DNA of 64,000 nucleotides from Oscillospiraceae bacterium (GTDB lineage Bacteria > Bacillota > Clostridia > Oscillospirales > CAG-382), in the NCBI GenBank assembly GCA_015064625.1, contig SVRW01000007.1, forward strand, positions 19,794-83,793. The letters are read 5' to 3'. Position numbers and translations under genes: made by a program. The notes below the pieces were generated by a model, which saw nothing but the letters and a program-made list of their open reading frames with translations, made no database searches and had not been told where the DNA came from. Positions 4,580-59,944 of this stretch are shown in pieces (position 1 is the stretch's first letter; the number at the start of each line of letters is the position of its first letter).

Positions 4580-4598
4580 AAAAAATCCTTTCTATAAT

Positions 4599-4701
4599 GC
4601 GGAATGAGGAATGCGGAATTCGGAATAAAGGTGGCTTTTCTCCATACTGTTGAAAAGCATATTTTTTTATTCCGCATTACGAATTCCGAATTCTGAATTC
4701 C
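4599..4701. repeat. Mosaic element, locus A: imperfect inverted ATTCCGN heptad arms flanking the conserved core hairpin
   Basis: Left arm 4599-4626 (GCGGAATGAGGAATGCGGAATTCGGAAT). Core hairpin GCTTTTC-N11-GAAAAGC at 4634-4658. Right arm 4669-4701 (ATTCCGC ATTACGA ATTCCGA ATTCTGA ATTCC). TCCTGCC/TCTTGCC-type units follow at 4704-4720. Confidence 0.85.
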
Positions 4702-4709
4702 ACTCCTGC

Positions 4710-5333
4710 CTATCTTGCCTTGTACGTTTCTCCAACGTTTTCAACTATTGCCTTACCGCCTGTCATATCCATAAGGGCAGATTCAACCTCTGTATACTTT
4801 TCGGGCAAAAGGTGAGCGACTAATGTTACGTTCATGCCGAATTCAGCGTTTGTATGGCTGATTTCTCGTTTATCAAGGTAATAAACAACCTTCTGATAAT
4901 CGGAATAGGAAACGGTTATCTCCATTTTTTTGAAAAGGGTGAATGTTACAACTTCACCGTCTTCAACCGCATCCTTTGCCGATGTTGAATATGCACGTAC
5001 AAGTCCTCCGGTGCCAAGAAGTATACCACCGAAATATCGGGTTACAACTATAACACAGTCTGTAATATTTTGCTTTCTCAACGTGTCGAGAAGGGGAAGC
5101 CCCGCTGTTCCGTGAGGCTCACCATCATCGCTGAAACGTTGAATGTTGTTCTCGCGGAGAACGTATGCATATACGTTGTGCCTTGCATCAGAATGCTTTT
5201 CTTTTATTTTTTTGACGAAAGCTACGGCTTCTTCTTCTGTAGCTACGGGAGCGGTATATCCGTAGAAAACGGAACGCTTTTCCGTATACTCGCTGAAGCC
5301 TTCCTTCTTTATTGAAAGGTATTCGCCCTTCAT
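4710..5333 (-). CDS. yigZ: IMPACT/YigZ family protein (UPF0029)
   Basis: RSVFYGY...HSDARHNVYAY...QRFSDDGEPHGTAGLPLL...VVTRYFGGILLGTGGLVRAYS matches the YigZ N-terminal domain. Confidence 0.85.
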   Translation of the reverse strand: MKGEYLSIKKEGFSEYTEKRSVFYGYTAPVATEEEAVAFVKKIKEKHSDARHNVYAYVLRENNIQRFSDDGEPHGTAGLPLLDTLRKQNITDCVIVVTRYFGGILLGTGGLVRAYSTSAKDAVEDGEVVTFTLFKKMEITVSYSDYQKVVYYLDKREISHTNAEFGMNVTLVAHLLPEKYTEVESALMDMTGGKAIVENVGETYKAR

Positions 5334-18676: not shown

Positions 18677-19495
18677 ATGGATCTTTTTAACTCTAATGCA
18701 AACGAATCGGAAAAGTCCTTTTTGAAAAACAGAATGAGGGCAATCTTCGGTTCAACGGAAATGCTGGTTCATGGAATAATAAAAATTATTCTGGCATTGT
18801 TTTTTATCATAGGTGGGTTTTCTTCCCACGTTGCGTGGATGGGTGGCGTTTTCTTTCTGCTTTCTGCTGCATCAACTTTTCTGATGTTTTCCAAAATGCA
18901 GGGAGAGAGAAAATATTCTCCTATAGGCGCAAAGATGTATTCTATACTGACTTTGATAGAAAGTATTTTTATAAAAGTTTATCTTCTTACGTACTGCGTA
19001 TTTCTCCTTACCGCTATGTTTGGCTGGAGCTTATTTGGAAAAGCAACGGAAGCGGCGGCTATTCCCGCTTATAAAATGGGTTTCTTTTGTATTGTTGCAA
19101 TTATTTGTGTTTTAATTGTTTTTTCAATGGTTTCGGTTTACTTAAAGCAACAAAGAAAGTTTGCGGAAAATATTTTTGATTGTGTTGATGCACAGCTTGT
19201 TTTCTTCAGCACGGAGAGAAAATACGCTATGAGAAGCTTTGTATATGCGTTACTCGTTTTTATGTATAACATATTCAAAATGCTTTGCCCGTCCTGGTAC
19301 AGACTTAACGTTCTCCCTGCTAAATTTGCAGAATATCTTGACAGCGGTATAATTATCGAAAAATACGGTGTATTCACTTTTTTGGCGTTACTTCTTTTAA
19401 GCGTTCACTTGGTGCTTTCGGGAAGGCTTGCCGCAAATTATATGATGGTTGTAAGAAAGCTGAAAAAGAAGATTGACGAAAGACACGCAAGTTGA
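18677..19495 (+). CDS. Polytopic membrane protein of unknown function
   Basis: About 6 hydrophobic segments. No family recognised. Confidence 0.5.
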   Translation: MDLFNSNANESEKSFLKNRMRAIFGSTEMLVHGIIKIILALFFIIGGFSSHVAWMGGVFFLLSAASTFLMFSKMQGERKYSPIGAKMYSILTLIESIFIKVYLLTYCVFLLTAMFGWSLFGKATEAAAIPAYKMGFFCIVAIICVLIVFSMVSVYLKQQRKFAENIFDCVDAQLVFFSTERKYAMRSFVYALLVFMYNIFKMLCPSWYRLNVLPAKFAEYLDSGIIIEKYGVFTFLALLLLSVHLVLSGRLAANYMMVVRKLKKKIDERHAS

Positions 19496-19596
19496 GCGAA
19501 GCTCCACTTCGCAATGAAATCCACTTTCAGTGGATGAAATCGCTCAAGGCGGTGAAATTCACCTTCGGTGAATGAAATGTTGCAAAGCAACGTTGA
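19496..19596 (+). repeat. Tandem array of five mini-hairpins with an 18-20-nt period
   Basis: GCGAAG-ctcca-CTTCGC; ATCCACT-ttc-AGTGGAT; ATCGC-tcaag-GCGGT; ATTCACC-ttc-GGTGAAT; ATGTTGC-aaa-GCAACGT. Units are separated by GAA. Stem sequences differ but pairing is maintained. Confidence 0.85.
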
Positions 19597-19623
19597 GGAA
19601 AATTTTCTCCCTGCGGTCGAAAA
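19597..19623 (+). repeat. 26-28-nt box, copy 1 of 5 (GGAAAATTTTCTCCCTGCGGTCGAAAA)
   Basis: Same box as at 38226, 38354, 57841 and 57911. Confidence 0.8.
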
Positions 19624-19681
19624 TATTTTATTATATAATTTTTGTGAGTGCTACCTTTAATAAACGAGAAAGACTTATATC

Positions 19682-20797: not shown

Positions 20798-21070
20798 TTA
20801 AAACAAATCGCTATGAGTTCCTGTGCGAGAAAGAATCAATACAACTTCTGATTCGTCTATGCGGTATATCAATAACCAATCAGGCAATATATGACATTCT
20901 CTGAATCCGACATAATTTCCTGTCAACGAATGATCTCTATACTTTTCTTCCAATGGAATGTTGCTTGCTAAATTTTCTACTACTTTGTCAAGCAAATCCA
21001 AGTCATATCCTCGTTTCGATATAACCTTCAAGTCTTTTTTGAAGCGATTGGATAATACTATGTCAAGCAT
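20798..21070 (-). CDS. yafQ: Type II toxin, YafQ family (RelE superfamily mRNA interferase)
   Basis: FKKDLKVISKRGYDLDLL...YRDHSLTGNYVGFRECHILPDWLLIYRIDE...LSRTGTHSDLF is the YafQ signature. Confidence 0.88.
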   Translation of the reverse strand: MLDIVLSNRFKKDLKVISKRGYDLDLLDKVVENLASNIPLEEKYRDHSLTGNYVGFRECHILPDWLLIYRIDESEVVLILSRTGTHSDLF

Positions 21071-21359
21071 TTTCTAACACATCTTTTACAGCAGATTTAA
21101 AATCAGGATATCGCTTATATTTTTCGGGATGAGCTTTCATTTCGTAATATTCATTCATCGCTGCTATTGTATCTGCGTTAGGAGTTCTTGTGGATATATC
21201 AAAAGGAATTCTTTGTTCTCTTACCACGGTTTTAGCAAAGATATTAAAAGCTGCACTAACGGAAATCCCAATTTCATTGCAGAAAGCATCGAACGCTTTT
21301 TTTGTTTCTTCGTCAAGGCGAATATTAACATTTGTCTGCGCCATGCGTTTTTCCACCAC
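21063..21359 (-). CDS. dinJ: Type II antitoxin, RelB/DinJ family
   Basis: NVNIRLDEETKKAFDAFCNEIGISVSAAFNIFAKTVVREQRIPF (DinJ RHH). 8-nt overlap with yafQ. Confidence 0.88.
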   Translation of the reverse strand: MVEKRMAQTNVNIRLDEETKKAFDAFCNEIGISVSAAFNIFAKTVVREQRIPFDISTRTPNADTIAAMNEYYEMKAHPEKYKRYPDFKSAVKDVLENA

Positions 21360-21370
21360 CTTTCTATTAT

Positions 21371-21399
21371 ATTATATATAATTTGTATGTATTTGTCAA
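21371..21399 (-). promoter_or_regulatory. Sigma-A promoter of dinJ-yafQ
   Basis: On the minus strand: TTGACA (21399-21394), 17-nt spacer, TATAAT (21376-21371). Confidence 0.7.
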
Positions 21400-21543
21400 T
21401 ATAATTTATGGCGTTTGAAAAACAATTTATAAAATTTTTTTAAATCGGTTGCTTTTTGCGGTTTCAAAAAGCTTCATTTTCTCTTATCTATTCTCTCTCA
21501 TTTTTTATCTGTTCATTCAATAAAAGATTTATTGAATAAGCAT

Positions 21544-21609
21544 CAAGCCTATTATGCTGATGATATATAATTTTACCGATTGGTAAGGTTGCACAAACCA
21601 ATCGGTAAA
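21544..21609. repeat. 66-bp repeat, copy B, directly 3' of the HTH gene stop
   Basis: Identical to copy A except for one TA unit fewer in the (TA)n tract. Confidence 0.95.
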
Positions 21610-21616
21610 TAGTAAT

Positions 21617-21850
21617 TCAATGACTTTCAGGACCAAACTCTACTTTTAATTGCATTCCCATCCCTTCAGCAAGTCGTATTAAGGTACGTAAGGAAGGGTT
21701 AGCGTTTCCCTTTTCCAACTTACTGATATCACCTTGGGCAATTCCTGTAATCTTGGACAATTCCTTTTGTGTCATTCCTGAAGCGTGTCTTGCCTCAATC
21801 AATGCTTGTACAATTTCGTCTACTTCAACAGTATAGGTTGTGTTACTCAT
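21617..21850 (-). CDS. XRE-family helix-turn-helix protein (HigA/antitoxin- or regulator-like)
   Basis: MTQKELSKITGIAQGDISKLEKGNANPSLRTLIRLAEGMG. Start taken at MSNTTY (21850), which overlaps the upstream stop by 8 nt (ATGAGTAA). The ORF track's longer version begins at 21910. Confidence 0.8.
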   Translation of the reverse strand: MSNTTYTVEVDEIVQALIEARHASGMTQKELSKITGIAQGDISKLEKGNANPSLRTLIRLAEGMGMQLKVEFGPESH

Positions 21851-22061
21851 CGGTTCCAATGCTCTCCCAATCGATGTCTTCTGCATCAACGTAACCGCTT
21901 TTTTCTGCATCCTCTATTTTCTTTGCTTCCTCTGCGGTAACTTTAGTAAAATCCGGATCCCAAGCAAGAACTAATTTTTTGATAAACTCGTAAGCAAACG
22001 CCTTGTCTGCTTCTGGAAGTACATCCATTAAGCGTGCTGCTTCAATTACAATACTTGACAT
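21843..22061 (-). CDS. Small acidic protein (72 aa), candidate antitoxin/adaptor of a three-gene TA module
   Basis: AGGAGGAG RBS about 7 nt upstream of the ATG at 22061. Acidic C-terminus (EDAEKSGYVDAEDIDWESIGTDE). No family recognised. Confidence 0.6.
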   Translation of the reverse strand: MSSIVIEAARLMDVLPEADKAFAYEFIKKLVLAWDPDFTKVTAEEAKKIEDAEKSGYVDAEDIDWESIGTDE

Positions 22062-22074
22062 ATAAGACTCCTCC

Positions 22075-22344
22075 TTATTTGTATATATCTCCGCGATTGC
22101 CAATATCGATTACAAAGCTGATCTCTACCGTTTCTTCATTTTCGTGTCTATAGATAATTCTCCACGATCCAACACGGAGTCGTTTCCTTCCGTCGTTGTA
22201 GCCCTGCATCGTTTTGATATCTCCAACTGGCGGATTATAAGTCAATCCCGTAATAGCATCACGGATTCTACCAACAGATTTTTTGTCTAATTTTTACAGA
22301 AATTTCAGTGCATCTTTCGAATATCTGATTTTAATTTCATTCAT
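22075..22344 (-). pseudogene. RelE/ParE-family toxin gene interrupted by an in-frame TAA at codon 17
   Basis: My minus-strand translation: MNEIKIRYSKDALKFL*KLDKKSVGRIRDAITGLTYNPPVGDIKTMQGYNDGRKRLRVGSWRIIYRHENEETVEISFVIDIGNRGDIYK. The stop is at 22294-22296. The LRVGxxRIIY...IGxRxDIY core is typical of RelE/ParE. Missing from the ORF track because of the stop. Confidence 0.85.
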
Positions 22345-29628: not shown

Positions 29629-30474
29629 ATGAAAAAATTCACCATTTGCATGTTGCTTTTAGCACTTGCTCTTTCCACAGTTCTTGTTGGTTGCGGTAAT
29701 GGCGATGATTCTTCCGCAGTATCAACAGAATCCAAAGCAGAAGAATCCAAGACAGAATCCAAAGCAGAAGAATCCAAAGCAGAAGAATCTGCTGACGCAT
29801 CCGCAGATGCTTCTACTGATGCTTCCGCAGATGCATCCACAGACGCATCTACAGACGACGTTAAAGTTATGACTTATGCTGAATATGCAGCAGCTGAAGT
29901 TGACGCAGCAGTTGTTATCGAAGCATACGTTCAGGCAAAACAGTCCTGGTGGGATAACAAAGCTACTATCTATACACAGGACAAAGACGGTGCATATTTC
30001 ATCTATGAAATGTCTTGCTCAGAAGAAGATTTTGCAAAACTCGTTCCCGGTACAAAGATTCGTGTAACGGGCTTCAAAACCATTTGGGAAGGTGAAGTTG
30101 AAATTGCTTCAGGTTCTACTTTCGAAATCATTGAAGGTGCAGACACATATATTGCAGAACCTGTTGATCTTACAGACGTTATCGCAACAGAAGATCTTAT
30201 CAACTATCAGAACCAGCTTGCAGTATTCAAGGGCATGACAGTTGAAAAGGTTGAGTTCAAAAACGGTGAACCTGGTGACGATATTTACGTAACACTTGGT
30301 CTTAACGGCGCAAGCTATTCTTTCTGCGTTGAACGTTACCTTACAGACCCTGAAACAGACGTTTATAAGACTGTAAGCACACTTGAAGTTGGTAAGGTTA
30401 TTGACGTTGAAGGCTTTGTTTATTGGTACAAAGGTTCAAACCCCCACATCACAAAGGTTACAGTTGTTCAGTAA
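29629..30474 (+). CDS. Lipoprotein with a low-complexity linker (SKAEES and DASA/DAST repeats) and a C-terminal domain of unknown function
   Basis: Lipobox LVGC. Tandem codon repeats at about 29730-29860. No family recognised. Confidence 0.6.
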   Translation: MKKFTICMLLLALALSTVLVGCGNGDDSSAVSTESKAEESKTESKAEESKAEESADASADASTDASADASTDASTDDVKVMTYAEYAAAEVDAAVVIEAYVQAKQSWWDNKATIYTQDKDGAYFIYEMSCSEEDFAKLVPGTKIRVTGFKTIWEGEVEIASGSTFEIIEGADTYIAEPVDLTDVIATEDLINYQNQLAVFKGMTVEKVEFKNGEPGDDIYVTLGLNGASYSFCVERYLTDPETDVYKTVSTLEVGKVIDVEGFVYWYKGSNPHITKVTVVQ

Positions 30475-30860: not shown

Positions 30861-31059
30861 AGACGTTTTTGAAAATTTTTTTTGCAAAAAAATGTAACCT
30901 TTTGGAATGCTTAATACATTATATATATAGAGGGGCAAATTATTTTCAAAATATAAACTTGCCTTTAAAGCATTTTGAAAGGGGGACGTCCAATGGCCGG
31001 AAAAGACCGCATAAAACATTTTACGTAATGAAAACGGACTTGTTTTAATTTTAAAAAAA

Positions 31060-31091
31060 GAGGCATTTTCAAAAAGAGGCATTTTCAAAAA
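31060..31091. repeat. Perfect 16-bp tandem duplication
   Basis: GAGGCATTTTCAAAAA occurs twice in tandem. Confidence 0.9.
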
Positions 31092-31368
31092 AACGAAAAA
31101 CTAAAAAGATATGATGGCTAAAAATGTTTATAAAGGGGACGCTAACTGAGTGGGGTTCTTCTCTGTTTGATGAGTGAGGATGAAAGAGTAAGTATTTAAG
31201 CTGCTTCTTGACATTCTGTTGTTAAAATTTTTAAAATTAAACATCTCTGTCTCCTGCTTGGCATTCCAAAACGTCTATTTTAACAAAGAGGTGATACCGA
31301 TATTTTAATGTCTTTAAGCATGCTTTTACCAATTTGAAAATACAAAAAAATTGAAAAGGAAAGATATC

Positions 31369-32670
31369 ATGAAAAAAAATATAAAAAAACTTACTTTCTT
31401 CGTCATATTAATCACAATTGTTTTATCAAGTCTGAATTTTTCAAGTTTCAATACAGCCATGGCAGATGAACAACCTGTTTTGCCAGATGGTATGTATTTA
31501 ATTAAAAATTTGGGATTGGACACAAATATTCGCGCTGGGAGCTATTGTACAGTTCGTACTTCTTTTGGCAGGATAGATTACTACACTATAGAGGAAATGT
31601 TCACCGAAAACACAGCAAGTACTCCTGAAGCAACAGGAAGTTTGCTGTGGTATATTAAAAGAGATGAAATAAACAATAAATATTCTATCACTGCAGTTGG
31701 ATTAAGGCCAGCAGGCGAAGAAAGATTTGGAGCATATAAACTTTCAGCGTGTAGTGCTTACGCATACTTGTGCTATAACACACCACAATTCCCAAATTCT
31801 TTTGAAATTTCTGTAACTCAAAATGGTAATATATATACTGGAAATGTTATTGAAAATAATAGCAATACACGTTTGTCAGCTTCGTCGTCTAATGTTTATT
31901 TTTTCTCAGAAGATGGCATTAATGATCAGTGGGAGTTTACATATATAGATACAGCAAGATATAATTTTTTTTGGGAAGGCACATACAACCAAGGTATTTA
32001 TAATGGCGTTGCTCATGTGAAGATTTTACTTTCAGATGATTTATTAAACAGCAATTTATTTGGTGAAACCTTTGGCGTATCAAGAATACAAGAAGCAGTT
32101 ACAAAATGGAATGGAATTTCTGAAAATGTAATTATTTATGGCCCTAACGATTCGTTTCCAAACGGAATTACTCCATTTTATGTTACAATCACCACGAGTG
32201 ATGAAATATCTGTTGAGGGAGTCCAAGGGGATGCGTTTGGCGTAATGTTAGCTAATGGGGATGTAAACAATCATTCCTCAATTTTAGCAGAAGATTGGAA
32301 TAGCGCAACGATTGTTTTGAACGATTATGATACATGGCAAGATAATCCATTTTTACTTTATGAAACTGGAAGCACGGAACAATTAACAACTATTTCTGCA
32401 GTTATTACTCATGAAGTGGGGCATGCGCTTAAGCTTTCGCATCCGAACGAAGGGATATCGTTGGGCAACAGACATACTTTTGAAGGCAGTGTTGATAATA
32501 CACTTGAAACACATGAAATTTATTCTGTGATGAATAGTGGTAGCTTGTTTGAATATACTATAAATGGCTACGTTATTGACCCCCTTCCCGACACCTCTGC
32601 TGCACCTCAAGCATTTGACATTATAAACCTTAAAAGTAAATGGGAATATCACAATGGGTGTAATCATTAA
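31369..32670 (+). CDS. Secreted zinc metalloprotease (metzincin-like HExxHxxxxxH)
   Basis: Signal peptide and the motif HEVGHALKLSHP. The N-terminal about 170 aa may be a lectin-like domain (a QxW-like DQWEF). The gene is AT-rich. Start taken at ATG 31369; the ORF track's TTG start is 31351. Confidence 0.65.
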   Translation: MKKNIKKLTFFVILITIVLSSLNFSSFNTAMADEQPVLPDGMYLIKNLGLDTNIRAGSYCTVRTSFGRIDYYTIEEMFTENTASTPEATGSLLWYIKRDEINNKYSITAVGLRPAGEERFGAYKLSACSAYAYLCYNTPQFPNSFEISVTQNGNIYTGNVIENNSNTRLSASSSNVYFFSEDGINDQWEFTYIDTARYNFFWEGTYNQGIYNGVAHVKILLSDDLLNSNLFGETFGVSRIQEAVTKWNGISENVIIYGPNDSFPNGITPFYVTITTSDEISVEGVQGDAFGVMLANGDVNNHSSILAEDWNSATIVLNDYDTWQDNPFLLYETGSTEQLTTISAVITHEVGHALKLSHPNEGISLGNRHTFEGSVDNTLETHEIYSVMNSGSLFEYTINGYVIDPLPDTSAAPQAFDIINLKSKWEYHNGCNH

Positions 32671-36775: not shown

Positions 36776-38060
36776 AAAAATGCATTCATCAAAATTTTGG
36801 CTTGCTCTCACCATATTCGGTTTTATGGGGCAAGTGGCATGGACTGTTGAAAATATGTATTTCAACGTGTTTATGTATAAAATGTTTGGCGCGTCTCCTG
36901 AGGATATTTCTCTTATGGTAGGCGCAAGTGCCGTTGCCGCCACTGTTACCACTGTGTTTATGGGCGCTTTATCTGACAAAATAGGAAAGCGCAAGCTTTT
37001 TATATGCGGTGGATATATACTTTGGGGAATATCAATTTTTACGTTCTGTTTTTTACGGCTTGACCTTATAGAAAAAGTGGTAGGTACTGCGGTTCAGGCT
37101 GCAACGGTTGGGATTTCCCTTGTTGTTATCCTTGACTGCTTGATGACGTTTTTCGGCTCTACTGCTAACGATGCGGCTTTTAACGCATGGGTCACGGATA
37201 TGACTGACAGCACAAACAGAGGTGCGGCAGAGGGAATAAACTCTATGATGCCAATGCTGGCTGTCCTTGCAGTTTTCGGCGGATTCATGGCGTTTGACCT
37301 GAACAAATCGGAAAGCTGGACATCAATATTCGCTATTATAGGAGTTTGTGTTATAGTTGTTGGTATTTCGGGGTTTTTTATTATAGAAAAGGATAAAAAC
37401 GTACCGACAAAAAGCGGATACTTGAAAAACGTTGTATACGGCTTTTTACCGTCAACTGTCAAAGAAAATCTTTCTTTGTATTTTCATCTCTTGATGTTTA
37501 TTATTTTCAACGTTTCCATACAGATTTTTATGCCTTATTTGATAATCTACTATGAGCAGACGTTGAAAATGGCAAATTATACACTGATTATGGCTCCTGC
37601 CGTTATTCTTGCCGCTGTTGCCACGTTCTTCTGGGGCAAGGTGTATGACAAAAAGGGATTTGATTTTTCTTCCGCATTTTCTGTTTGCTTTCTTGCTTTG
37701 GGATACGTGGTTTTAGTCGTTGCAAAGAGCATGGTTCCGGTGTTTATTGGTTCGCTTTTTATGATGTGCGGTTATCTTTGCTCAATGGCGGTTTTTGGCG
37801 CAAAAATACGTGACTTGACTCCGATGGGAAAATCGGGTATGTTCCAAGGAGTGAGAATTTTCTCCCAAGTTCTTATACCGGGCGTATTAGGCCCGTACAT
37901 AGGGCAGGCGGTTTTGAAAAACGCTGACAAGATAACAAACAGTGACGGAACAACGTCGTTCTTGCCAAACGTGAATATTTTTATAGCAGCCTTTGCTGCT
38001 TTAGGCGTTTTGGTTGTTTTGGCGGCGGCAAAACGATTTTTTATGAAGATTAAAAAGTGA
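36768..38060 (+). CDS. MFS transporter
   Basis: About 12 TMs, with a GALSDKIGKRK loop-2/3 motif. Confidence 0.8.
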   Translation: MTKKMHSSKFWLALTIFGFMGQVAWTVENMYFNVFMYKMFGASPEDISLMVGASAVAATVTTVFMGALSDKIGKRKLFICGGYILWGISIFTFCFLRLDLIEKVVGTAVQAATVGISLVVILDCLMTFFGSTANDAAFNAWVTDMTDSTNRGAAEGINSMMPMLAVLAVFGGFMAFDLNKSESWTSIFAIIGVCVIVVGISGFFIIEKDKNVPTKSGYLKNVVYGFLPSTVKENLSLYFHLLMFIIFNVSIQIFMPYLIIYYEQTLKMANYTLIMAPAVILAAVATFFWGKVYDKKGFDFSSAFSVCFLALGYVVLVVAKSMVPVFIGSLFMMCGYLCSMAVFGAKIRDLTPMGKSGMFQGVRIFSQVLIPGVLGPYIGQAVLKNADKITNSDGTTSFLPNVNIFIAAFAALGVLVVLAAAKRFFMKIKK

Positions 38061-38128
38061 ATATTTGAAAAAAGTTATCTTTCCTCGCTTCGCTCGAAAA
38101 TCATTTATATAAAATATTAGTCTAATTC

Positions 38129-38170
38129 AATGCTCAATTCAAGGTTCAACGCCCCGAATTGAGCATTTTT
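38129..38170 (+). terminator. MFS terminator, which is also the hairpin module of the mosaic element family (locus B)
   Basis: ATGCTCAATTC-N15-GAATTGAGCAT followed by TTTTAT. The GCTCNATTCAAGG...CCCCGAANNGAGC core is homologous to the hairpins at 58118-58149 and 58533-58564. Confidence 0.75.
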
Positions 38171-38192
38171 ATATTCCGCATTCCGCTTTTAA

Positions 38193-38220
38193 ATTGAAAA
38201 TGGAAAATGGAAAATTGAAA
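38193..38220. repeat. ATTGAAA/ATGGAAA heptad array (4 units)
   Basis: ATTGAAA ATGGAAA ATGGAAA ATTGAAA. The same heptads occur at 57878-57905. Confidence 0.85.
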
Positions 38221-38225
38221 GTTAA

Positions 38226-38251
38226 GGAAATTTTTCTCCCGTTGGTCGAAA
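38226..38251 (+). repeat. 26-28-nt box, copy 2
   Basis: GGAAATTTTTCTCCCGTTGGTCGAAA. Confidence 0.9.
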
Positions 38252-38257
38252 CCATAA

Positions 38258-38348
38258 GGCAAGAGAGAATAGGCAAGAGGGAAGAGGCAGGAGGCAAGAG
38301 GGAAGAGGCAGGAGGCAAGAGGGAAGAGGCAGGAGGCAAGAGGCAGGA
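38258..38348. repeat. Thirteen GGNANGA heptads forming a 21-nt higher-order tandem repeat
   Basis: (GGCAAGA GGGAAGA GGCAGGA) three times plus partial units. This creates four AGGAGG strings on the plus strand. The array is bracketed by box copies 2 and 3. Confidence 0.9.
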
Positions 38349-38353
38349 GGGGA

Positions 38354-38381
38354 GGAAATTTTTCTCCCGTTGGTCGAAAAA
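38354..38381 (+). repeat. 26-28-nt box, copy 3
   Basis: GGAAATTTTTCTCCCGTTGGTCGAAAAA, identical to copy 2 over 26 nt. Confidence 0.9.
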
Positions 38382-38395
38382 TATTTTATATAATT

Positions 38396-38483
38396 GCTTT
38401 TCGAACGCAGAGAGAAAAGCTACCTTTATTCCGAATTCCGCATTCCGAATTCCGCATTCCGAATTCCGCATTCCGCATTCCGC
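38396..38483 (+). repeat. Conserved core hairpin plus eight ATTCCGN heptads
   Basis: GCTTTTC-gaacgcagaga-GAAAAGC (38396-38420), TACCTTT, then ATTCCGA/ATTCCGC eight times (38428-38483). The array ends 8 nt before the RadC-like stop codon. Confidence 0.9.
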
Positions 38484-38491
38484 ATTTTACT

Positions 38492-57211: not shown

Positions 57212-57820
57212 ATGAAATATTTTATAAAAACCATTGAAAACGAAAAAGAAGTTGATTCTTTGCCAAAGGCTTATATTGACAAATACGTATGGGGTGATGA
57301 GTATACTCCTGTATCCTTTGCGCAGCTCGGACTTCTCAAAGGCAAGGGTCTTTATCTTAAGCTTACGTCCTTTGAAAAATCTCCAAAGATAACGGGAACG
57401 GAATACGGTCACAAGGTGCATCTGGATAGTTGTCTTGAGTTTTTTGCATCTATGGATAATTCTTCACCGCTGTACGTTAACTTTGAAGCAAACGCGGCAG
57501 GTGCTTTTGTCCTGACCTCCAGACTTAACCGTAATGAAAAAGTTAATCACGCTCATACTATCGAAGGCTTGAAGCTTCCCGACGTAAAGGCAAATATAAA
57601 CGAAGACAACTGGACTGTAGAAGTGCTTTTCGATTTCGACCTTGTGGAGAAGCTTTTCGGAAAACGTGTTGAATTTGAAAAAGGATACGTTTTCAAGGGG
57701 AATTTTTATAAATGCGGTGATGAAACAAAAATAGCACATTATGGAATGTGGTCTCCCGTGTTACTTGAAAATCCTGACTTTCATCAAAGCGGATTTTTTG
57801 CAGAGCTTGAGATTGAATAA
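57212..57820 (+). CDS. Carbohydrate-binding family 9-like protein
   Basis: 202 aa. DSCLEFF, NFEANAAG, GNFYKCGD and HYGMWSPV...PDFHQSGFF resemble the cytoplasmic CBM9-like family. Confidence 0.55.
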   Translation: MKYFIKTIENEKEVDSLPKAYIDKYVWGDEYTPVSFAQLGLLKGKGLYLKLTSFEKSPKITGTEYGHKVHLDSCLEFFASMDNSSPLYVNFEANAAGAFVLTSRLNRNEKVNHAHTIEGLKLPDVKANINEDNWTVEVLFDFDLVEKLFGKRVEFEKGYVFKGNFYKCGDETKIAHYGMWSPVLLENPDFHQSGFFAELEIE

Positions 57821-57840
57821 GACGCGAAGGAAAGAGGAAA

Positions 57841-57867
57841 GGAAATTTTTCTTCCGCCGATCGAAAA
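57841..57867 (+). repeat. 26-28-nt box, copy 4
   Basis: GGAAATTTTTCTTCCGCCGATCGAAAA. Confidence 0.8.
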
Positions 57868-57877
57868 ACGTTATTTA

Positions 57878-58015
57878 ATTGAAAATTGAAAATGGAAAGT
57901 TGAAAATTATGGTAATTTTTCTCCCACCGGTCGAAAAATAAATTCTTGTTTACCCTTACCTCTTGCCTTTGCATCAGCCTTTACAATTTTCAACTTTCAA
58001 CTTTCAATTTCCAAT
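57878..58015. repeat. Inverted heptad arms enclosing box copy 5
   Basis: ATTGAAA ATTGAAA ATGGAAA GTTGAAA (57878-57905). Box GGTAATTTTTCTCCCACCGGTCGAAAA (57911-57937). Inverted TTTCAAC TTTCAAC TTTCAAT TTCCAAT (57988-58015). Confidence 0.85.
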
Positions 58016-58073
58016 TTCCCATCGCTCCTTTGATATTGTATCATGCAAGGTGTGTCAGTTATCACACATTTTT

Positions 58074-58150
58074 AATTCGGAATTCGGAATGCGGAATTCG
58101 GAATAAAAAAAGCTCGGTTCGGGGTTTTACCCTTGAATCGAGCGTTTTTT
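58074..58150 (+). terminator. Left inverted arm of locus C: AATTCGG/AATGCGG heptads plus a terminator-like hairpin
   Basis: Heptads at 58074-58104. AAAAAAA-GCTCGGTTCGGGG-tttt-ACCCTTGAATCGAGC-GTTTTTT: a 13-bp stem whose non-Watson-Crick pairs are G-T on the plus strand. Likely terminator of the CBM9-like gene. Confidence 0.7.
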
Positions 58151-58195
58151 GATTGTTTTATTTGTGAATGTTTTAGTTTATTTTTCGATAATTTA

Positions 58196-58277
58196 TTTTT
58201 CGAACGCAGTGAGAAAAATTTCCATTATTCCGCATTCCGCATTCCGCATTGAAAAAGTTCCGCATTCCGCATTATGC
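58196..58277 (+). repeat. Conserved core hairpin plus ATTCCGC heptads (locus C)
   Basis: TTTTTC-gaacgcagtga-GAAAAA (58196-58218; same 11-nt loop as locus B with one difference). ATTCCGC three times (58227-58247), then further units to 58277. Confidence 0.85.
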
Positions 58278-58278
58278 A

Positions 58279-58392
58279 TAGGTTTAGGTTTAGGTTTAGG
58301 ATTAGGTTTAGGATTAGGATTAGGATTAGGATTAGGTTTAGGATTAGGATTAGGATTAGGATTAGGTTTAGGATTAGGATTAGGTTTAGGAT
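58279..58392. repeat. Nineteen-unit hexamer array TAGGTT/TAGGAT
   Basis: Unit order by variant base is TTT A T AAAA T AAAA T AA T A, which partly gives a 30-nt higher-order period. Confidence 0.95.
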
Positions 58393-58530
58393 TACTGAGC
58401 AAAAATTAGCAAAAATAGCATTTGCTACCATTTGCTGTTTTTGCAATGGTTTACTATTTAACTTTTGCACTTGCTGTTTTTGCTCACATTAGTTCGAATT
58501 TGCTGTTTTATTATGACTTCAAAATAGATA

Positions 58531-58647
58531 AAGCTCGATTCAAGGGTAAATCCTCGAACCAAGCTTTATTATTTCGAATTACGAATTACGCATTCCGAAT
58601 TGAACAAGTTACGCATTCCGAATTACTCCTGCCTCCTGCCTCTTGCC
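58531..58647 (-). terminator. Right inverted arm of locus C: hairpin plus ATTNCGN heptads plus TCCTGCC/TCTTGCC heptads (likely murA terminator region)
   Basis: The reverse complement of 58531-58601 aligns with 58074-58150 (about 80 percent by eye). The hairpin mismatches become G-U only on the minus strand, where TTATCTATTTT follows. Heptads TCCTGCC TCCTGCC TCTTGCC at 58627-58647. Confidence 0.65.
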
Positions 58648-58657
58648 TTGGCGAAGC

Positions 58658-59944
58658 CTATTCTTCCACGTTTTCCCAATATATATCCGCTCCGACTTGC
58701 TCAAGCTTTTTGACAATATCGTCGTATCCTCTGAGAATATAGTCTATTTTACGGATAACTGTTGTTCCCTCTGCGGCAAGTCCTGCAAGAACCAAGGCTG
58801 CACCGCCTCTCAGGTCCATAGCATTTACCTCTGCTCCTTTAAGCTTGGATACGCCTGTAGCAATAACACGCGATGCACGAATACCAAGAGACGCATGCCT
58901 TTCTATAGATGCATCCATCTTTTTAAGTTCGTTTATGTATTCAAAACGGTCAGACCAGATTTCTTCAACCACGGAGCCTTTTCCTGCCAGACAGAGAAGA
59001 ACCATTACCTGCGGATGCATATCCGTTGGGAAGCCTGGGTAAGGAGCTGTTGTTACGTCTGTTCCCTGAAGCTCACCATTTCTTTCGACGGTTATGTTTT
59101 CCCCATCTTCCGTTACAGTCAAGCCTATTTTTTTGAGGACTGCGACAGTTGATTCCATATGCTTTGGAATAACGTTTTTAACGGTTATACGGCTGCCGTC
59201 AACCATTCCTGCGGCACACATAAACGTTCCGGCTTCTATCATATCAGGTATTACCGTATATGGCTGAACAGGAGAATGAAGTCCTTCCACGCCCTTTATT
59301 TTTATTGTGGAGGTTCCTGCGCCTACTATGTTTGCTCCGCACACGTTGAGGAAGTTTGCGAAATCAACAACGTGAGGTTCTCTTGCGGCATTTATTATTG
59401 TTGTAGTTCCTTCTGCGTGAACAGCCGCCATAGCTATATTCATAGTGCTTCCCACAGAGAAATGACCGTCTATGATATTTCCCTTAAGGGGGGAGCTTGT
59501 TGTCAATTCCACAAGCTCGTCAGAAACTATAGCCTTAGCACCCAAGGCTTCAAAGCCTGCAAGATGATAATTTATAGGGCGTTCGCCTATCTTACATCCG
59601 CCTGACGAATATCCAGAAGCTTTTCCGAATCTGCCTAAAAGCGCGCCCAAAAGATAATATGAGGCTCTCATCGTTCCCATCAGCTCTTTGTCTACGATAA
59701 TCTCAGAATTGATGTTTCTTGTGTCTATTTTAAGTATACCGCTTCCAAGCTTTGTTATTTTTGCGCCTGCGGCGGTAAGGATTTTCAGGGAGTTTTCCAC
59801 GTCAGAAATATCGGGGATATTTTCGATAACGCAAACACCGTCAATAAGCACGGTTGCGAAAAGAATGGGCAGAACGGCATTTTTCATTCCGCTTATAGGA
59901 ATCTCGCCGCAAAGCTGTTTGCCTCCGTTAACTGAAATTCTCAT
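58658..59944 (-). CDS. murA: UDP-N-acetylglucosamine 1-carboxyvinyltransferase
   Basis: GEIPISGMKNAVLPIL, GGCKIGERPINYHL (active-site Cys), PGFPTDMHPQ and LRGGAALVLAGLAAEG. Confidence 0.93.
   Translation of the reverse strand: MRISVNGGKQLCGEIPISGMKNAVLPILFATVLIDGVCVIENIPDISDVENSLKILTAAGAKITKLGSGILKIDTRNINSEIIVDKELMGTMRASYYLLGALLGRFGKASGYSSGGCKIGERPINYHLAGFEALGAKAIVSDELVELTTSSPLKGNIIDGHFSVGSTMNIAMAAVHAEGTTTIINAAREPHVVDFANFLNVCGANIVGAGTSTIKIKGVEGLHSPVQPYTVIPDMIEAGTFMCAAGMVDGSRITVKNVIPKHMESTVAVLKKIGLTVTEDGENITVERNGELQGTDVTTAPYPGFPTDMHPQVMVLLCLAGKGSVVEEIWSDRFEYINELKKMDASIERHASLGIRASRVIATGVSKLKGAEVNAMDLRGGAALVLAGLAAEGTTVIRKIDYILRGYDDIVKKLEQVGADIYWENVEE

Follow-up and report, generated by a model that had tools for sequence, protein, structure and literature searches.

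A probable family of modular, nested-palindromic repeats in the gap between convergent CBM9_2 and murA genes of an Oscillospiraceae genome

Multi-copy extragenic repeats in which palindromic units alternate with linker motifs are familiar from Proteobacteria as bacterial interspersed mosaic elements (BIMEs) and as REPINs, the hairpin-forming doublets of repetitive extragenic palindromes (REP). Intergenic arrays of seven-nucleotide units form another described type. The TAACTGA repeats of Beggiatoaceae, Cyanobacteria and Bacteroidetes are almost all direct and end 1 nt before a start codon, with one inverted case in 170 (PMC4679880), while cyanobacterial short tandemly repeated repetitive (STRR) heptamers go back to Vioque 1997, as cited in PMC2858038. 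The RNA motif Gut-1 was published from human-gut metagenomes alone, its organism not known, and was classed as a certain RNA on covariation (PMC2864571). Here we analyse a 64,000-nucleotide stretch of an Oscillospiraceae genome (contig SVRW01000007.1; 'the window' throughout), in which the space between a CBM9_2-domain gene and murA is occupied by repeats that invite comparison with these types. We think it probable, with some reservation, that several copies and fragments from a single lineage-specific, non-coding family of modular, nested-palindromic repeats have gathered in this gap; they would be mostly selfish or neutral, with two terminator modules among them.

The CBM9_2-domain gene (57212-57820, + strand) and murA (58658-59944, - strand) converge, leaving 837 bp between their stop codons (57821-58657). 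As the first-pass annotation had it, the gap is free of genes: its reading frames are all of low complexity, including a 68-amino-acid open reading frame (ORF) placed on the hexamer array by one metagenome gene caller, which has no Pfam match. Rfam searches of 57700-58750, at gathering thresholds and at E-values up to 10, returned only chance-level miRNA and snoRNA matches, and no Gut-1. Arrays were called with Tandem Repeats Finder, boxes and inverted arms by repeat search, and chance expectation was taken from shuffling controls. Eight period-7 arrays fall in the gap, out of 17 rows of period 7, 14 or 21 in the whole window. The arrays, boxes and inverted arms inventoried in the first-pass annotation were all recovered by these programs, and read from left to right as follows, with Tandem Repeats Finder calls given as unit and copy number.

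57821-57840, + strand: purine-rich lead-in directly after the CBM9_2 stop codon, degenerate and AGGCAAG-like (AGGCAAG dimer pattern with mismatches)
57841-57868, + strand: box copy 1, GGAAATTTTTCTTCCGCCGATCGAAAAA (repeat search, box pattern)
57877-57908, + strand: ATTGAAA/ATGGAAA heptad array (AATTGAA x4.6), left arm of a small palindromic element, found also as one of an inverted pair
57911-57938, + strand: box copy 2, GGTAATTTTTCTCCCACCGGTCGAAAAA, fitting a pattern that also matches in other phyla
57985-58022, + strand: inverted heptad array AATTTTC/AACTTTC/AATTTCC (TTTTCAA x5.4 at 57980-58017), right arm to 57877-57908, of a type also present in published Gut-1 flanks
58049-58068, + strand: small hairpin module GGTGTGTCAGTTATCACACA, with two further copies in the related locus L012
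58074-58104, + strand: AATTCGG/AATGCGG heptads (AATTCGG x4.4), left arm to the right arm at 58227-58273, and also inverted relative to 58571-58625
58105-58152, + strand: T module, predicted terminator hairpin for the CBM9_2 transcript, 13 pairs plus GTTTTTT (terminator scan, folding, covariation)
58197-58223, + strand: inverted box (BOX-R), TTTTCGAACGCAGTGAGAAAAATTTCC, which is the hairpin with a 6-7-bp stem and 11-nt loop of the first-pass annotation
58227-58273, + strand: ATTCCGC heptad arrays (x3.4 at 58227-58250 and x2.3 at 58258-58273) with a GAAAAAG interruption
58279-58394, + strand: TAGGAT/TAGGTT hexamer microsatellite, 19.3 units
58395-58527, + strand: stretch rich in GCAAAAA/TTTGCT, with an internal inverted repeat (58397-58425 / 58467-58495)
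58528-58569, - strand: T module, predicted terminator hairpin for the murA transcript, 18 pairs (terminator scan, folding, covariation)
58570-58625, + strand: ATTTCGA/ATTACGA/ATTCCGA heptad arrays (ATTACGA type, x7.7 at 58571-58626) with a GAACAAG interruption
58626-58648, + strand: CTCCTGC/CTCTTGC heptads (CTCCTGC x3.3), AGGCAAG in reverse complement; the array stops 9 nt short of the murA stop codon (58658)

The two 28-nt boxes at 57841 and 57911 are 86% identical, and the inverted heptad arms 57877-57908 and 57985-58016 are 91% complementary. A second, longer pair of inverted arms (58066-58146 and 58530-58609) is 80-85% complementary, its members lying around 383 nt apart. The dimer of the ATTCCGM heptad matches 31 times in the window against 2.0 expected. 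Read in this order, the ATTGAAA array, box copy 2, a spacer and the inverted TTTCAAT array are one small palindromic element. The AATTCGG array, T hairpin, AT-rich stretch, BOX-R and ATTCCGC arrays are a second element, in which T occupies the place of the left box. This layout of modules makes the arms of about 70 nt the AATTCGG-plus-T halves of two different elements. The gap had previously been presented as a single ordered structure of some 840 bp bracketed by those arms; the arms are there, but the single structure is not, since module order differs at the same site in related genomes (see below).

Comparison of copies yields a grammar for the family. The canonical element, also the commonest full form, is [AGGCAAG]n-M-[AATTCGG/AATGCGG]n-box-loop-BOX-R-[ATTCCGC/ATTCCGA]n-M'-[CTTGCCT]n; on side-by-side reading this order is complete in loci L007, L010 and L014 and partial in every other copy. 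Its core consists of box, an AT-rich loop of 17-29 nt and BOX-R, with the mirrored arms outside, and nine distinct cores were distinguished. A 320-nt example element folds into a single long hairpin. The heptad arms may be replaced by arrays of hairpin-plus-heptad units some 20-26 nt long (ATGAAAT/GTGAAAT on the left with ATTTCAT on the right, or GTGATGT with ACATCAC), and the T module, a long terminator-like hairpin, can stand in for either box. A strict 7-nt register running through the whole element was considered and rejected, core and linkers totalling 80 nt. Lengths of the arrays vary: there are 13 AGGCAAG units at 38257 of the window against about 3-5 in L006, L014, L017 and L019, and 8 ATTCCGC units in the window against approximately 17 in L019.

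The modules are dispersed, as the first-pass annotation had noticed. The box pattern matches six times in the window and not once in 100 shuffles, and a more generic box pattern 12 times against 3.2 expected; nine of these are real boxes, all of them within four intergenic loci that together make up 2.4% of the window. Apart from the murA gap, the modules recur at 4590-4725, 19597-19660 and 38061-38491, in the following settings.

4590-4725, - strand: second locus, between two co-directional - strand genes, with AGGCAAG-like and GGAATTC heptads, BOX-R and ATTCCGM heptads, with 12 nt left to the ribosome-binding site of the following gene
19512-19660, + strand: third locus, with a Gut-1 hairpin/heptad arm (19512-19583), a box 14 nt further on (19597-19623) and an AT-rich core; it lies within the 3' region of ORF 18677-19495, the core about 60 nt upstream of dapF, and is 98% conserved in the related genome JAZOCZ (L022)
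38061-38491, + strand: fourth locus (locus B), in the convergent gap between MFS and RadC genes, with an inverted half core, T hairpin, ATTGAAA heptads, box, 13 AGGCAAG units, box-loop-BOX-R and eight ATTCCGM units

Nor is the family confined to the window. When one genome per GTDB species was scanned with the box pattern, 19 exact matches were found on 16 contigs of the related metagenome-assembled genome (MAG) JAZOCZ ('Eubacteriales bacterium', SGB_2257) and three in a mouse-gut Lachnospiraceae MAG; copies in a related genome, which the first-pass annotation had proposed to look for, are thereby shown for JAZOCZ. Segments of 107-167 nt are 93-97% identical between loci whose flanks are unrelated. 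At L013 (approximately 790-850), between a plain terminator and the rpsB promoter region, a box is preceded by AGGCATT/AGGGATT heptads; the lineage therefore carries more heptad families than the window shows.

The gap was compared in three related genomes, namely those of the window, JAZOCZ and JAZUSF. The flanking genes are 87-98% identical among them, depending on the locus; the gap is not alignable as a whole. In JAZOCZ, where the gap measures 832 bp, the counterpart of window 58302-58648 is inverted and adjoins CBM9, the inverted counterpart of the CTCCTGC/CTCTTGC heptads abutting the CBM9 stop codon. An extra ATATCAA-type insert of around 100 nt is present, the hexamer array has 14.5 units in the opposite orientation as against 19.3 in the window, and the inverted part is followed by other modules and then by a Gut-1 arm beside murA. 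The GCAAAAA/TTTGCT stretch is found in all three genomes, inverted in JAZOCZ. JAZUSF has a murA 97.8% identical and a counterpart of window 58339-58580 that is 93% identical, while the 85 nt beside murA are like JAZOCZ and unlike the window heptads of 58570-58625. In addition, the last codon and stop of murA read GAA TAG in the window (58655-58660) and GAT TGA in the relatives, a change located where the repeat cluster starts, and the C-terminal codons of the MFS gene (38055-38063) likewise switch exactly at the start of their cluster in comparison with L024, L025 and L151. The repeats therefore extend to the very end of the coding sequences.

Locus B is 431 bp long in the window, whereas JAZOCZ, with an MFS gene 97.1% identical, has 66 bp carrying one plain hairpin. 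Since these 66 bp are a different sequence, the difference is a replacement rather than a clean insertion; no target-site duplication of the type left by miniature inverted-repeat transposable elements (MITEs) was identified at this site, and the element ends are tandem arrays. Presence/absence polymorphism, raised as a check in the first-pass annotation, is accordingly evident, locus B being without its cluster in JAZOCZ and the murA gap being rearranged across the three genomes. In relatives at 75-79% MurA identity, no boxes and two small heptad arrays were seen in 60.9 kb, and the murA-CBM9 gap of one of them is 160 bp long with a single bidirectional hairpin. Because one of these relatives and, at locus B, JAZOCZ have a plain hairpin, a simple hairpin is the likely ancestral state, and the mosaic is likely to be a recent, lineage-specific and still changing addition.

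The arms provide a link to Gut-1 (RF01706; gathering threshold 50 bits), whose sequence is the ATGAAAT-plus-hairpin type of array. It scores 57.7 bits at 19512-19583 of the window and 58.9 and 53.8 bits in L018 and L020. The highest value, 69.9 bits, comes from the orthologous murA-CBM9 gap of JAZOCZ (L024 6374-6450), in the sense orientation with respect to murA and 51 nt past its stop codon; in the window's own gap the gathering threshold is not reached. At all four independent loci in the lineage, a box lies within about 5-20 nt on the 3' side of Gut-1. The flanks in the published Gut-1 alignment have mirrored hairpin-plus-heptad arms, with TTTCAAT-type heptads like those at 57985-58022; the exact box is not present in the published sequences. 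Gut-1 is thus an arm module of the family. Its published reading is that of a stand-alone small RNA (sRNA); the present data suggest instead that it belongs, as an arm, to a palindromic repeat at the level of DNA.

Both T modules of the gap were detected by a terminator scan with U-tracts on the fitting strand: the left hairpin (58112-58143, + strand) is followed by GTTTTTT and the right (58569-58528, - strand) by CTATTTTG. The left folds at -23.5 kcal/mol on the + strand against -16.6 on the - strand, an asymmetry of 6.9, and the right at -14.8 (+) against -26.1 (-), an asymmetry of 11.3. Alignment of eleven T-module copies gives a helix of 17 pairs, of which 7 show compensatory changes, and two positions are conserved as G-U. 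Folding of both strands, the terminator scan and covariation hence agree with the earlier proposal that each hairpin folds best in the RNA of the gene converging on it and acts as a terminator at the RNA level; 58105-58152 (+) and 58528-58569 (-) are predicted to be strand-specific intrinsic terminators of CBM9_2 and murA respectively. In the two related genomes, the strand of the converging gene likewise gives the better fold for the three hairpins that an automated scan picked up, and the murA-side hairpin of JAZOCZ, as a 52-nt fold, gives -19.7 on the murA strand against -16.9. The asymmetry is not a universal rule, because the two copies of a second T subfamily (window 38123-38172 and L024 2271-2317) fold better on the strand opposite to the one with their U-tract. 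T modules share with described intrinsic and hairpin-cluster terminators (PMC8355165) an A-tract, a stem of 13-18 bp, a U-tract, strand-specific G-U pairs and a position 90-290 nt past stop codons, but differ in being members of a dispersed repeat family carried within larger elements. Termination does not explain the arrays, a point that the first-pass annotation had also made and that stands.

The box is the most widely distributed module. The core form is TTTTCTCCC-NNN-GGTCGAAA, with a 22-nt form ATTTTTCTCCC-NNN-GGTCGAAA and a generic form TTTTCTC-N7-TCGAAAA; boxes are 21-27 nt long, and BOX-R in the lineage has a variable centre of 7 nt. The arms are invariant and the centres variable, the central triplet being TTC in 62 of the 127 loci listed. 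Box hairpins have an AT-rich stem and fold at -2.5 to -6.7 kcal/mol, with z-scores of +0.16 to about -0.8 against shuffles, and folding around boxes has no strand bias (68 of those 127 loci). On its folding energy and lack of strand preference, the box was rejected as a stable RNA hairpin. Weak hairpins combined with invariant arms and variable centres fit sequence recognition better than a stable RNA fold. As a promoter element (sigma-70, sigma-54, sigma-H, Spo0A 0A-box or CodY half-site) the box was likewise rejected, spacing and conservation fitting none of these by eye, and a scan giving weak sites only.

Scanning of metagenomes with the pattern AWTTTTCTCCCNNNGGTCGAAA gave at least 120 matches, from samples with 27-62% G+C. 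These cross-phylum loci are L026-L145, together with L016 and L021. Among the matches listed, the box sits in at least five unrelated multi-copy families, as follows.

F1, Candidatus Kapabacteria by the names of neighbouring protein clusters: box lying in a long palindrome (GTCATTGCGAGGAG...CCTCCTCGCAATGAC) and partnered by a second box in reverse complement
F2, a marine MAG labelled Spirochaetales or Candidatus Peribacteraceae by the names of neighbouring protein clusters: box forming one of the hairpins in a three-way structure that GGGATATACGAG/CTTCGTATATCCC encloses
F3: termite-gut type
F4: Lachnospiraceae family
F5, Candidatus Omnitrophota by the names of neighbouring protein clusters: box beside other heptad arrays

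At all loci listed the box is intergenic, with 13 convergent contexts against 5 divergent. In the Omnitrophota-type loci, inverted heptad arrays lead to TTTCGACC-NNN-GGGAGAAAAAT, and the ATG of ilvD, mreB, rpsT or an MTA-phosphorylase-like gene follows 1-3 nt later. Since the reverse-complemented box ends so close to the ATG, it supplies the Shine-Dalgarno region of these loci. This spacing is seen in L073, L078, L081, L090, L098 and L111, an FMN-reductase-like gene also being among the targets, and inverted arrays (TGTAAAC/TGTACAC and others) precede GGGAGAAAAAT in L073, L081, L090, L098 and L111, with none visible in L078. From its position, GGGAGAAAAAT with its arrays looks like a portable cassette of 5' untranslated region (UTR) and ribosome-binding site. 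By a strict test, period-7 arrays adjoin 6 of 110 boxes of other lineages as compared with 7 of 400 controls, a weak enrichment.

Searches around the box for a mobile origin or a partner protein were negative. Viral contigs had no match with the full box pattern, leaving a phage origin without support, and six mostly coding, chance-like matches with a 17-nt pattern. BLAST of the box against plasmids gave chance-level matches only, Rfam had no match in 20 box-bearing metagenome loci, and when the proteins encoded near boxes at 140 loci were compared all against all, the families that recurred were generic ones only. No REP-associated tyrosine transposase (RAYT; Y1/HUH) was found in the 64-kb window or near boxes in the loci examined; one candidate lying between two inverted boxes in L057 was rejected, its ORF looking, when read by eye, like a member of the PEBP/YbhB family. 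A literature search on the box and flank sequences found nothing relevant.

Set beside described repeat classes, the feature falls among the bacterial interspersed mosaic repeats in a form not described before, and it agrees with no known family in every defining trait. In concept its nearest counterparts are BIMEs/REPINs and pneumococcal BOX elements, and in its 7-nt arrays the STRR and TAACTGA repeats. The initial view that no described class resembles the mosaic has to be given up: a Gut-1 arm belongs to the same family, heptamer arrays have been described (STRR, TAACTGA; PMC4679880), and BIMEs are themselves mosaics of palindromic units with linkers. With BIMEs and REPINs the present family shares, besides the alternation of units and linkers, a core made from an inverted pair of units of about 25 nt with a short spacer (here box and BOX-R, 17-29 nt apart, extragenic and multi-copy), a preference for the 3' ends of genes and variability between strains. 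It differs in that the REP unit is a stable, GC-rich, imperfect palindrome of 20-40 nt, whereas the box stem is AT-rich and weak; in its arms, which are 7-nt arrays such as BIMEs lack; and in that REPs are specific to a species or clade while the box is common to several phyla. The BOX elements of pneumococci, which are also Firmicutes, are built as boxA-(boxB)n-boxC from modules of 45-60 nt. They too are modular and intergenic, have variable internal tandem modules, form long hairpins, lack a known dedicated transposase and differ between strains, but their modules are far from 7 nt, the nested mirror symmetry of array types is missing and there is no sequence similarity.

The heptamer repeats resemble the family in unit length (7 nt), in forming intergenic tandem arrays, with copy numbers from 2 to above 40 and two closely related unit variants side by side in an array, and in scattered phylogeny. 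They consist of one or a few heptamers per genome, almost always in forward orientation just upstream of start codons, whereas here at least four heptad families are mirrored around a box, in every intergenic context including convergent gaps, and in the present case between two stop codons. STRR arrays are said, on Vioque's account of 1997, to be able to occupy both strands of an RNA helix (P12 of RNase P). The small dispersed repeats (SDR) of Nostoc, from the work of Elhai et al. in 2008 (a study cited in PMC3116915), are reportedly 21-27 nt long, imperfectly palindromic, in hairpin contexts, nested in other repeats and conserved unlike their surroundings; on that description, they would resemble the box in size and imperfect palindromy, in a different phylum. 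A CRISPR array was rejected: the units are of 6-7 nt or irregular, regularly spaced repeats of 24-48 nt are absent and there is no cas gene among the annotated genes.

How might such clusters arise? Arrays would lengthen and shorten by slipped-strand mispairing, and recombination among dispersed direct and inverted arrays could shuffle, invert, delete and copy modules between loci; a trans-acting enzyme recognising the box might plausibly contribute to their spread. Repeats would then accumulate where they do least harm, between converging genes. If slippage and recombination operate in this way, most of the approximately 840 bp would be selfish or neutral DNA, with the two T modules probably serving as terminators in place of the single plain bidirectional hairpin of the relatives. 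Several observations weigh against this account. No transposase, recombinase or HUH/Y1 gene is present in the window and none recurs near boxes in 140 loci; target-site duplications and clean element ends could not be delimited; how the family spreads is for these reasons a matter of inference. Strict conservation of the box from phylum to phylum speaks for selection on the core at least, so 'selfish junk' is not the whole story. In some lineages housekeeping genes have the reverse-complemented box as their ribosome-binding region, and in the present one a ribosome-binding site often follows closely on the end of an element, which may point to a regulatory role at the RNA level. Finally, the gap could be compared in three genomes only, one of them 13% diverged in the flanking genes, and some of the differences may be old. 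A bolder extension, which we regard as possible though doubtful, is that the box is the recognition site of a phylogenetically widespread machinery (a DNA enzyme, such as a domesticated one of HUH/Y1 type, or else a core RNA-binding factor) which seeds and propagates palindromic, often heptad-built repeats in many phyla.

One alternative is a functional RNA. Read-through from CBM9_2 or murA, or an internal promoter, would produce a Gut-1-type sRNA, a sponge or a UTR cassette, in which the AGGA of the UAGGAU hexamers or the Shine-Dalgarno-like GGAGG of AGGCAAG/AGGCAGG arrays would titrate an RNA-binding protein or the ribosome; otherwise it might be a stabiliser of 5' or 3' UTRs or control translation. 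Gut-1, classed as certain RNA (PMC2864571), is one arm type of the family and occurs in the sense orientation just past stop codons, the Omnitrophota-type arrays with GGGAGAAAAAT end 1-3 nt before the ATG of ilvD, mreB, rpsT and the MTA-phosphorylase-like gene, some elements end just upstream of a ribosome-binding site, and a role has been proposed for heptamer repeats just upstream of starts in Beggiatoaceae and Nostoc (PMC4679880; 10.1101/2022.06.06.494920). However, converging stop codons enclose the gap, which comes after terminators from either side; one relative has the hexamer array and what adjoins it in inverted orientation; and at locus B the whole cluster is dispensable. Covariation, moreover, is expected equally of palindromic hairpins acting as DNA, folding around boxes favours neither strand (68 of 127 loci listed), Rfam has no match in the gap, and the heptads, which vary from arm to arm and from lineage to lineage, do not offer any one motif. 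We consider this reading unlikely. The arrays have also been weighed as phased, iteron-like DNA sites, bound by a protein of nucleoid, replication or HUH type whose nick or recognition hairpin would be the box, by analogy with rolling-circle replication origins and their conserved nonanucleotide hairpin and variable iterons. The box is indeed conserved while adjoining heptads vary by lineage, arrays have super-periods of 14 and 21 bp, about two helical turns, and hairpin-plus-heptad units measure some 20-26 nt. Yet a single genome, and even a single gap, can contain several heptad families unrelated to each other, only a minority of boxes in other lineages have period-7 arrays beside them (the 6 of 110 against 7 of 400 controls given above) and no candidate protein stands out among the neighbours of boxes, leaving the idea improbable.

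A site-specific recombinase would offer another explanation, with boxes or arms as its sites, either in an invertible switch (inverton) between the arms of about 70 nt or in module shuffling of the att/dif type. The box does consist of two invariant inverted arms of 7-9 nt around a variable centre of 7 nt, inverted arms with 80-85% complementarity bracket 383 bp, and window 58302-58648 is inverted in JAZOCZ, 13% diverged. Against this, there is no simple flip between the arms, the AATTCGG-T-BOX-R block keeping its orientation while other modules differ; breakpoints fall in heptad arrays and not in boxes; the window has no recombinase or invertase gene; and no convincing promoter lies inside (six weak sites in 57500-58900 against 3.3 expected). 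Nor is the inversion phase variation, since the genomes compared are 13% diverged at the locus. Such a switch therefore seems to us highly improbable. The functional RNA or protein sponge, the switch and the iteron-like arrays are all weakened by the same two observations, namely that modules are inverted at the gap and that the whole cluster of locus B is absent in close relatives. Lastly, short-read metagenome assembly across simple repeats might have manufactured the mosaic. MAG contigs do often stop inside arrays (L148 and L149 in AGGCAAG, L025 in the hexamer, and many JAZOCZ contigs, L006-L023, in repeats), and array copy numbers in the assembly could be slightly off. But the same 837-bp gap is present in a second record, JGI 3300031555 (L001), identical throughout an 11.3-kb overlap, which may or may not be an independent sample; locus B is identical across contigs of three separate samples (two JGI, one ENA); and related genomes hold homologous, rearranged versions between the same genes. 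An artefact, one of the ways in which the first-pass annotation could have failed, finds no support here and its probability is close to negligible.

The surroundings are those of an ordinary chromosome. Housekeeping, transport and glycoside-hydrolase genes fill the 64-kb window, the neighbours of the gap including the sporulation genes yabP and yqfD and dockerin proteins; NCBI assigns MurA to a 'Ruminococcaceae/Oscillospiraceae bacterium' MAG. Within ORF 29629-30474, in-frame tandem repeats with periods of 12, 15, 24 and 27 nt occupy 29724-29857; they resemble sequence of L010 and L020 (78-85%), which suggests a repetitive, low-complexity protein family. The interval 31048-31107, upstream of ORF 31351-32670, has tandem copies of the 16-nt unit ATTTTCAAAAAAGAGGC (x2.7) and after them AAAAACG (x2.7); it does not obviously belong to the box/heptad family. 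At 20798-22245 (about 1.5 kb), small - strand ORFs have, by the look of their sequences, the appearance of type II toxin-antitoxin pairs: a YafQ/RelE-like protein of 90 amino acids with a DinJ/RelB-like protein of 98, and a helix-turn-helix (HigA-like) protein of 97 amino acids with small partners.

The repeat family probably filling the murA gap bears on several matters. Through it the orphan Rfam family Gut-1 gains a host lineage, an uncultured one within Oscillospiraceae/Ruminococcaceae, and in the T modules nature offers cases of a terminator packaged as a mobile module. An architecture of tandem heptads mirrored about a conserved box interrupts short-read MAG assemblies, systematically so in this lineage, and sets close relatives apart in their intergenic regions, which is relevant to strain typing and to the assembly of gut and rumen Clostridia. 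Should the box indeed be read by a widespread machinery, its carriers would range over Oscillospiraceae, Lachnospiraceae, Kapabacteria, Omnitrophota and the marine MAG labelled Peribacteraceae or Spirochaete, and Gut-1, the heptad mosaics and perhaps the heptamer arrays of Cyanobacteria and Beggiatoaceae would together form one new class of micro mobile or regulatory element. With a box common to unrelated families, the puzzle of intergenic heptamer arrays becomes testable, through a gene family that tracks the box.

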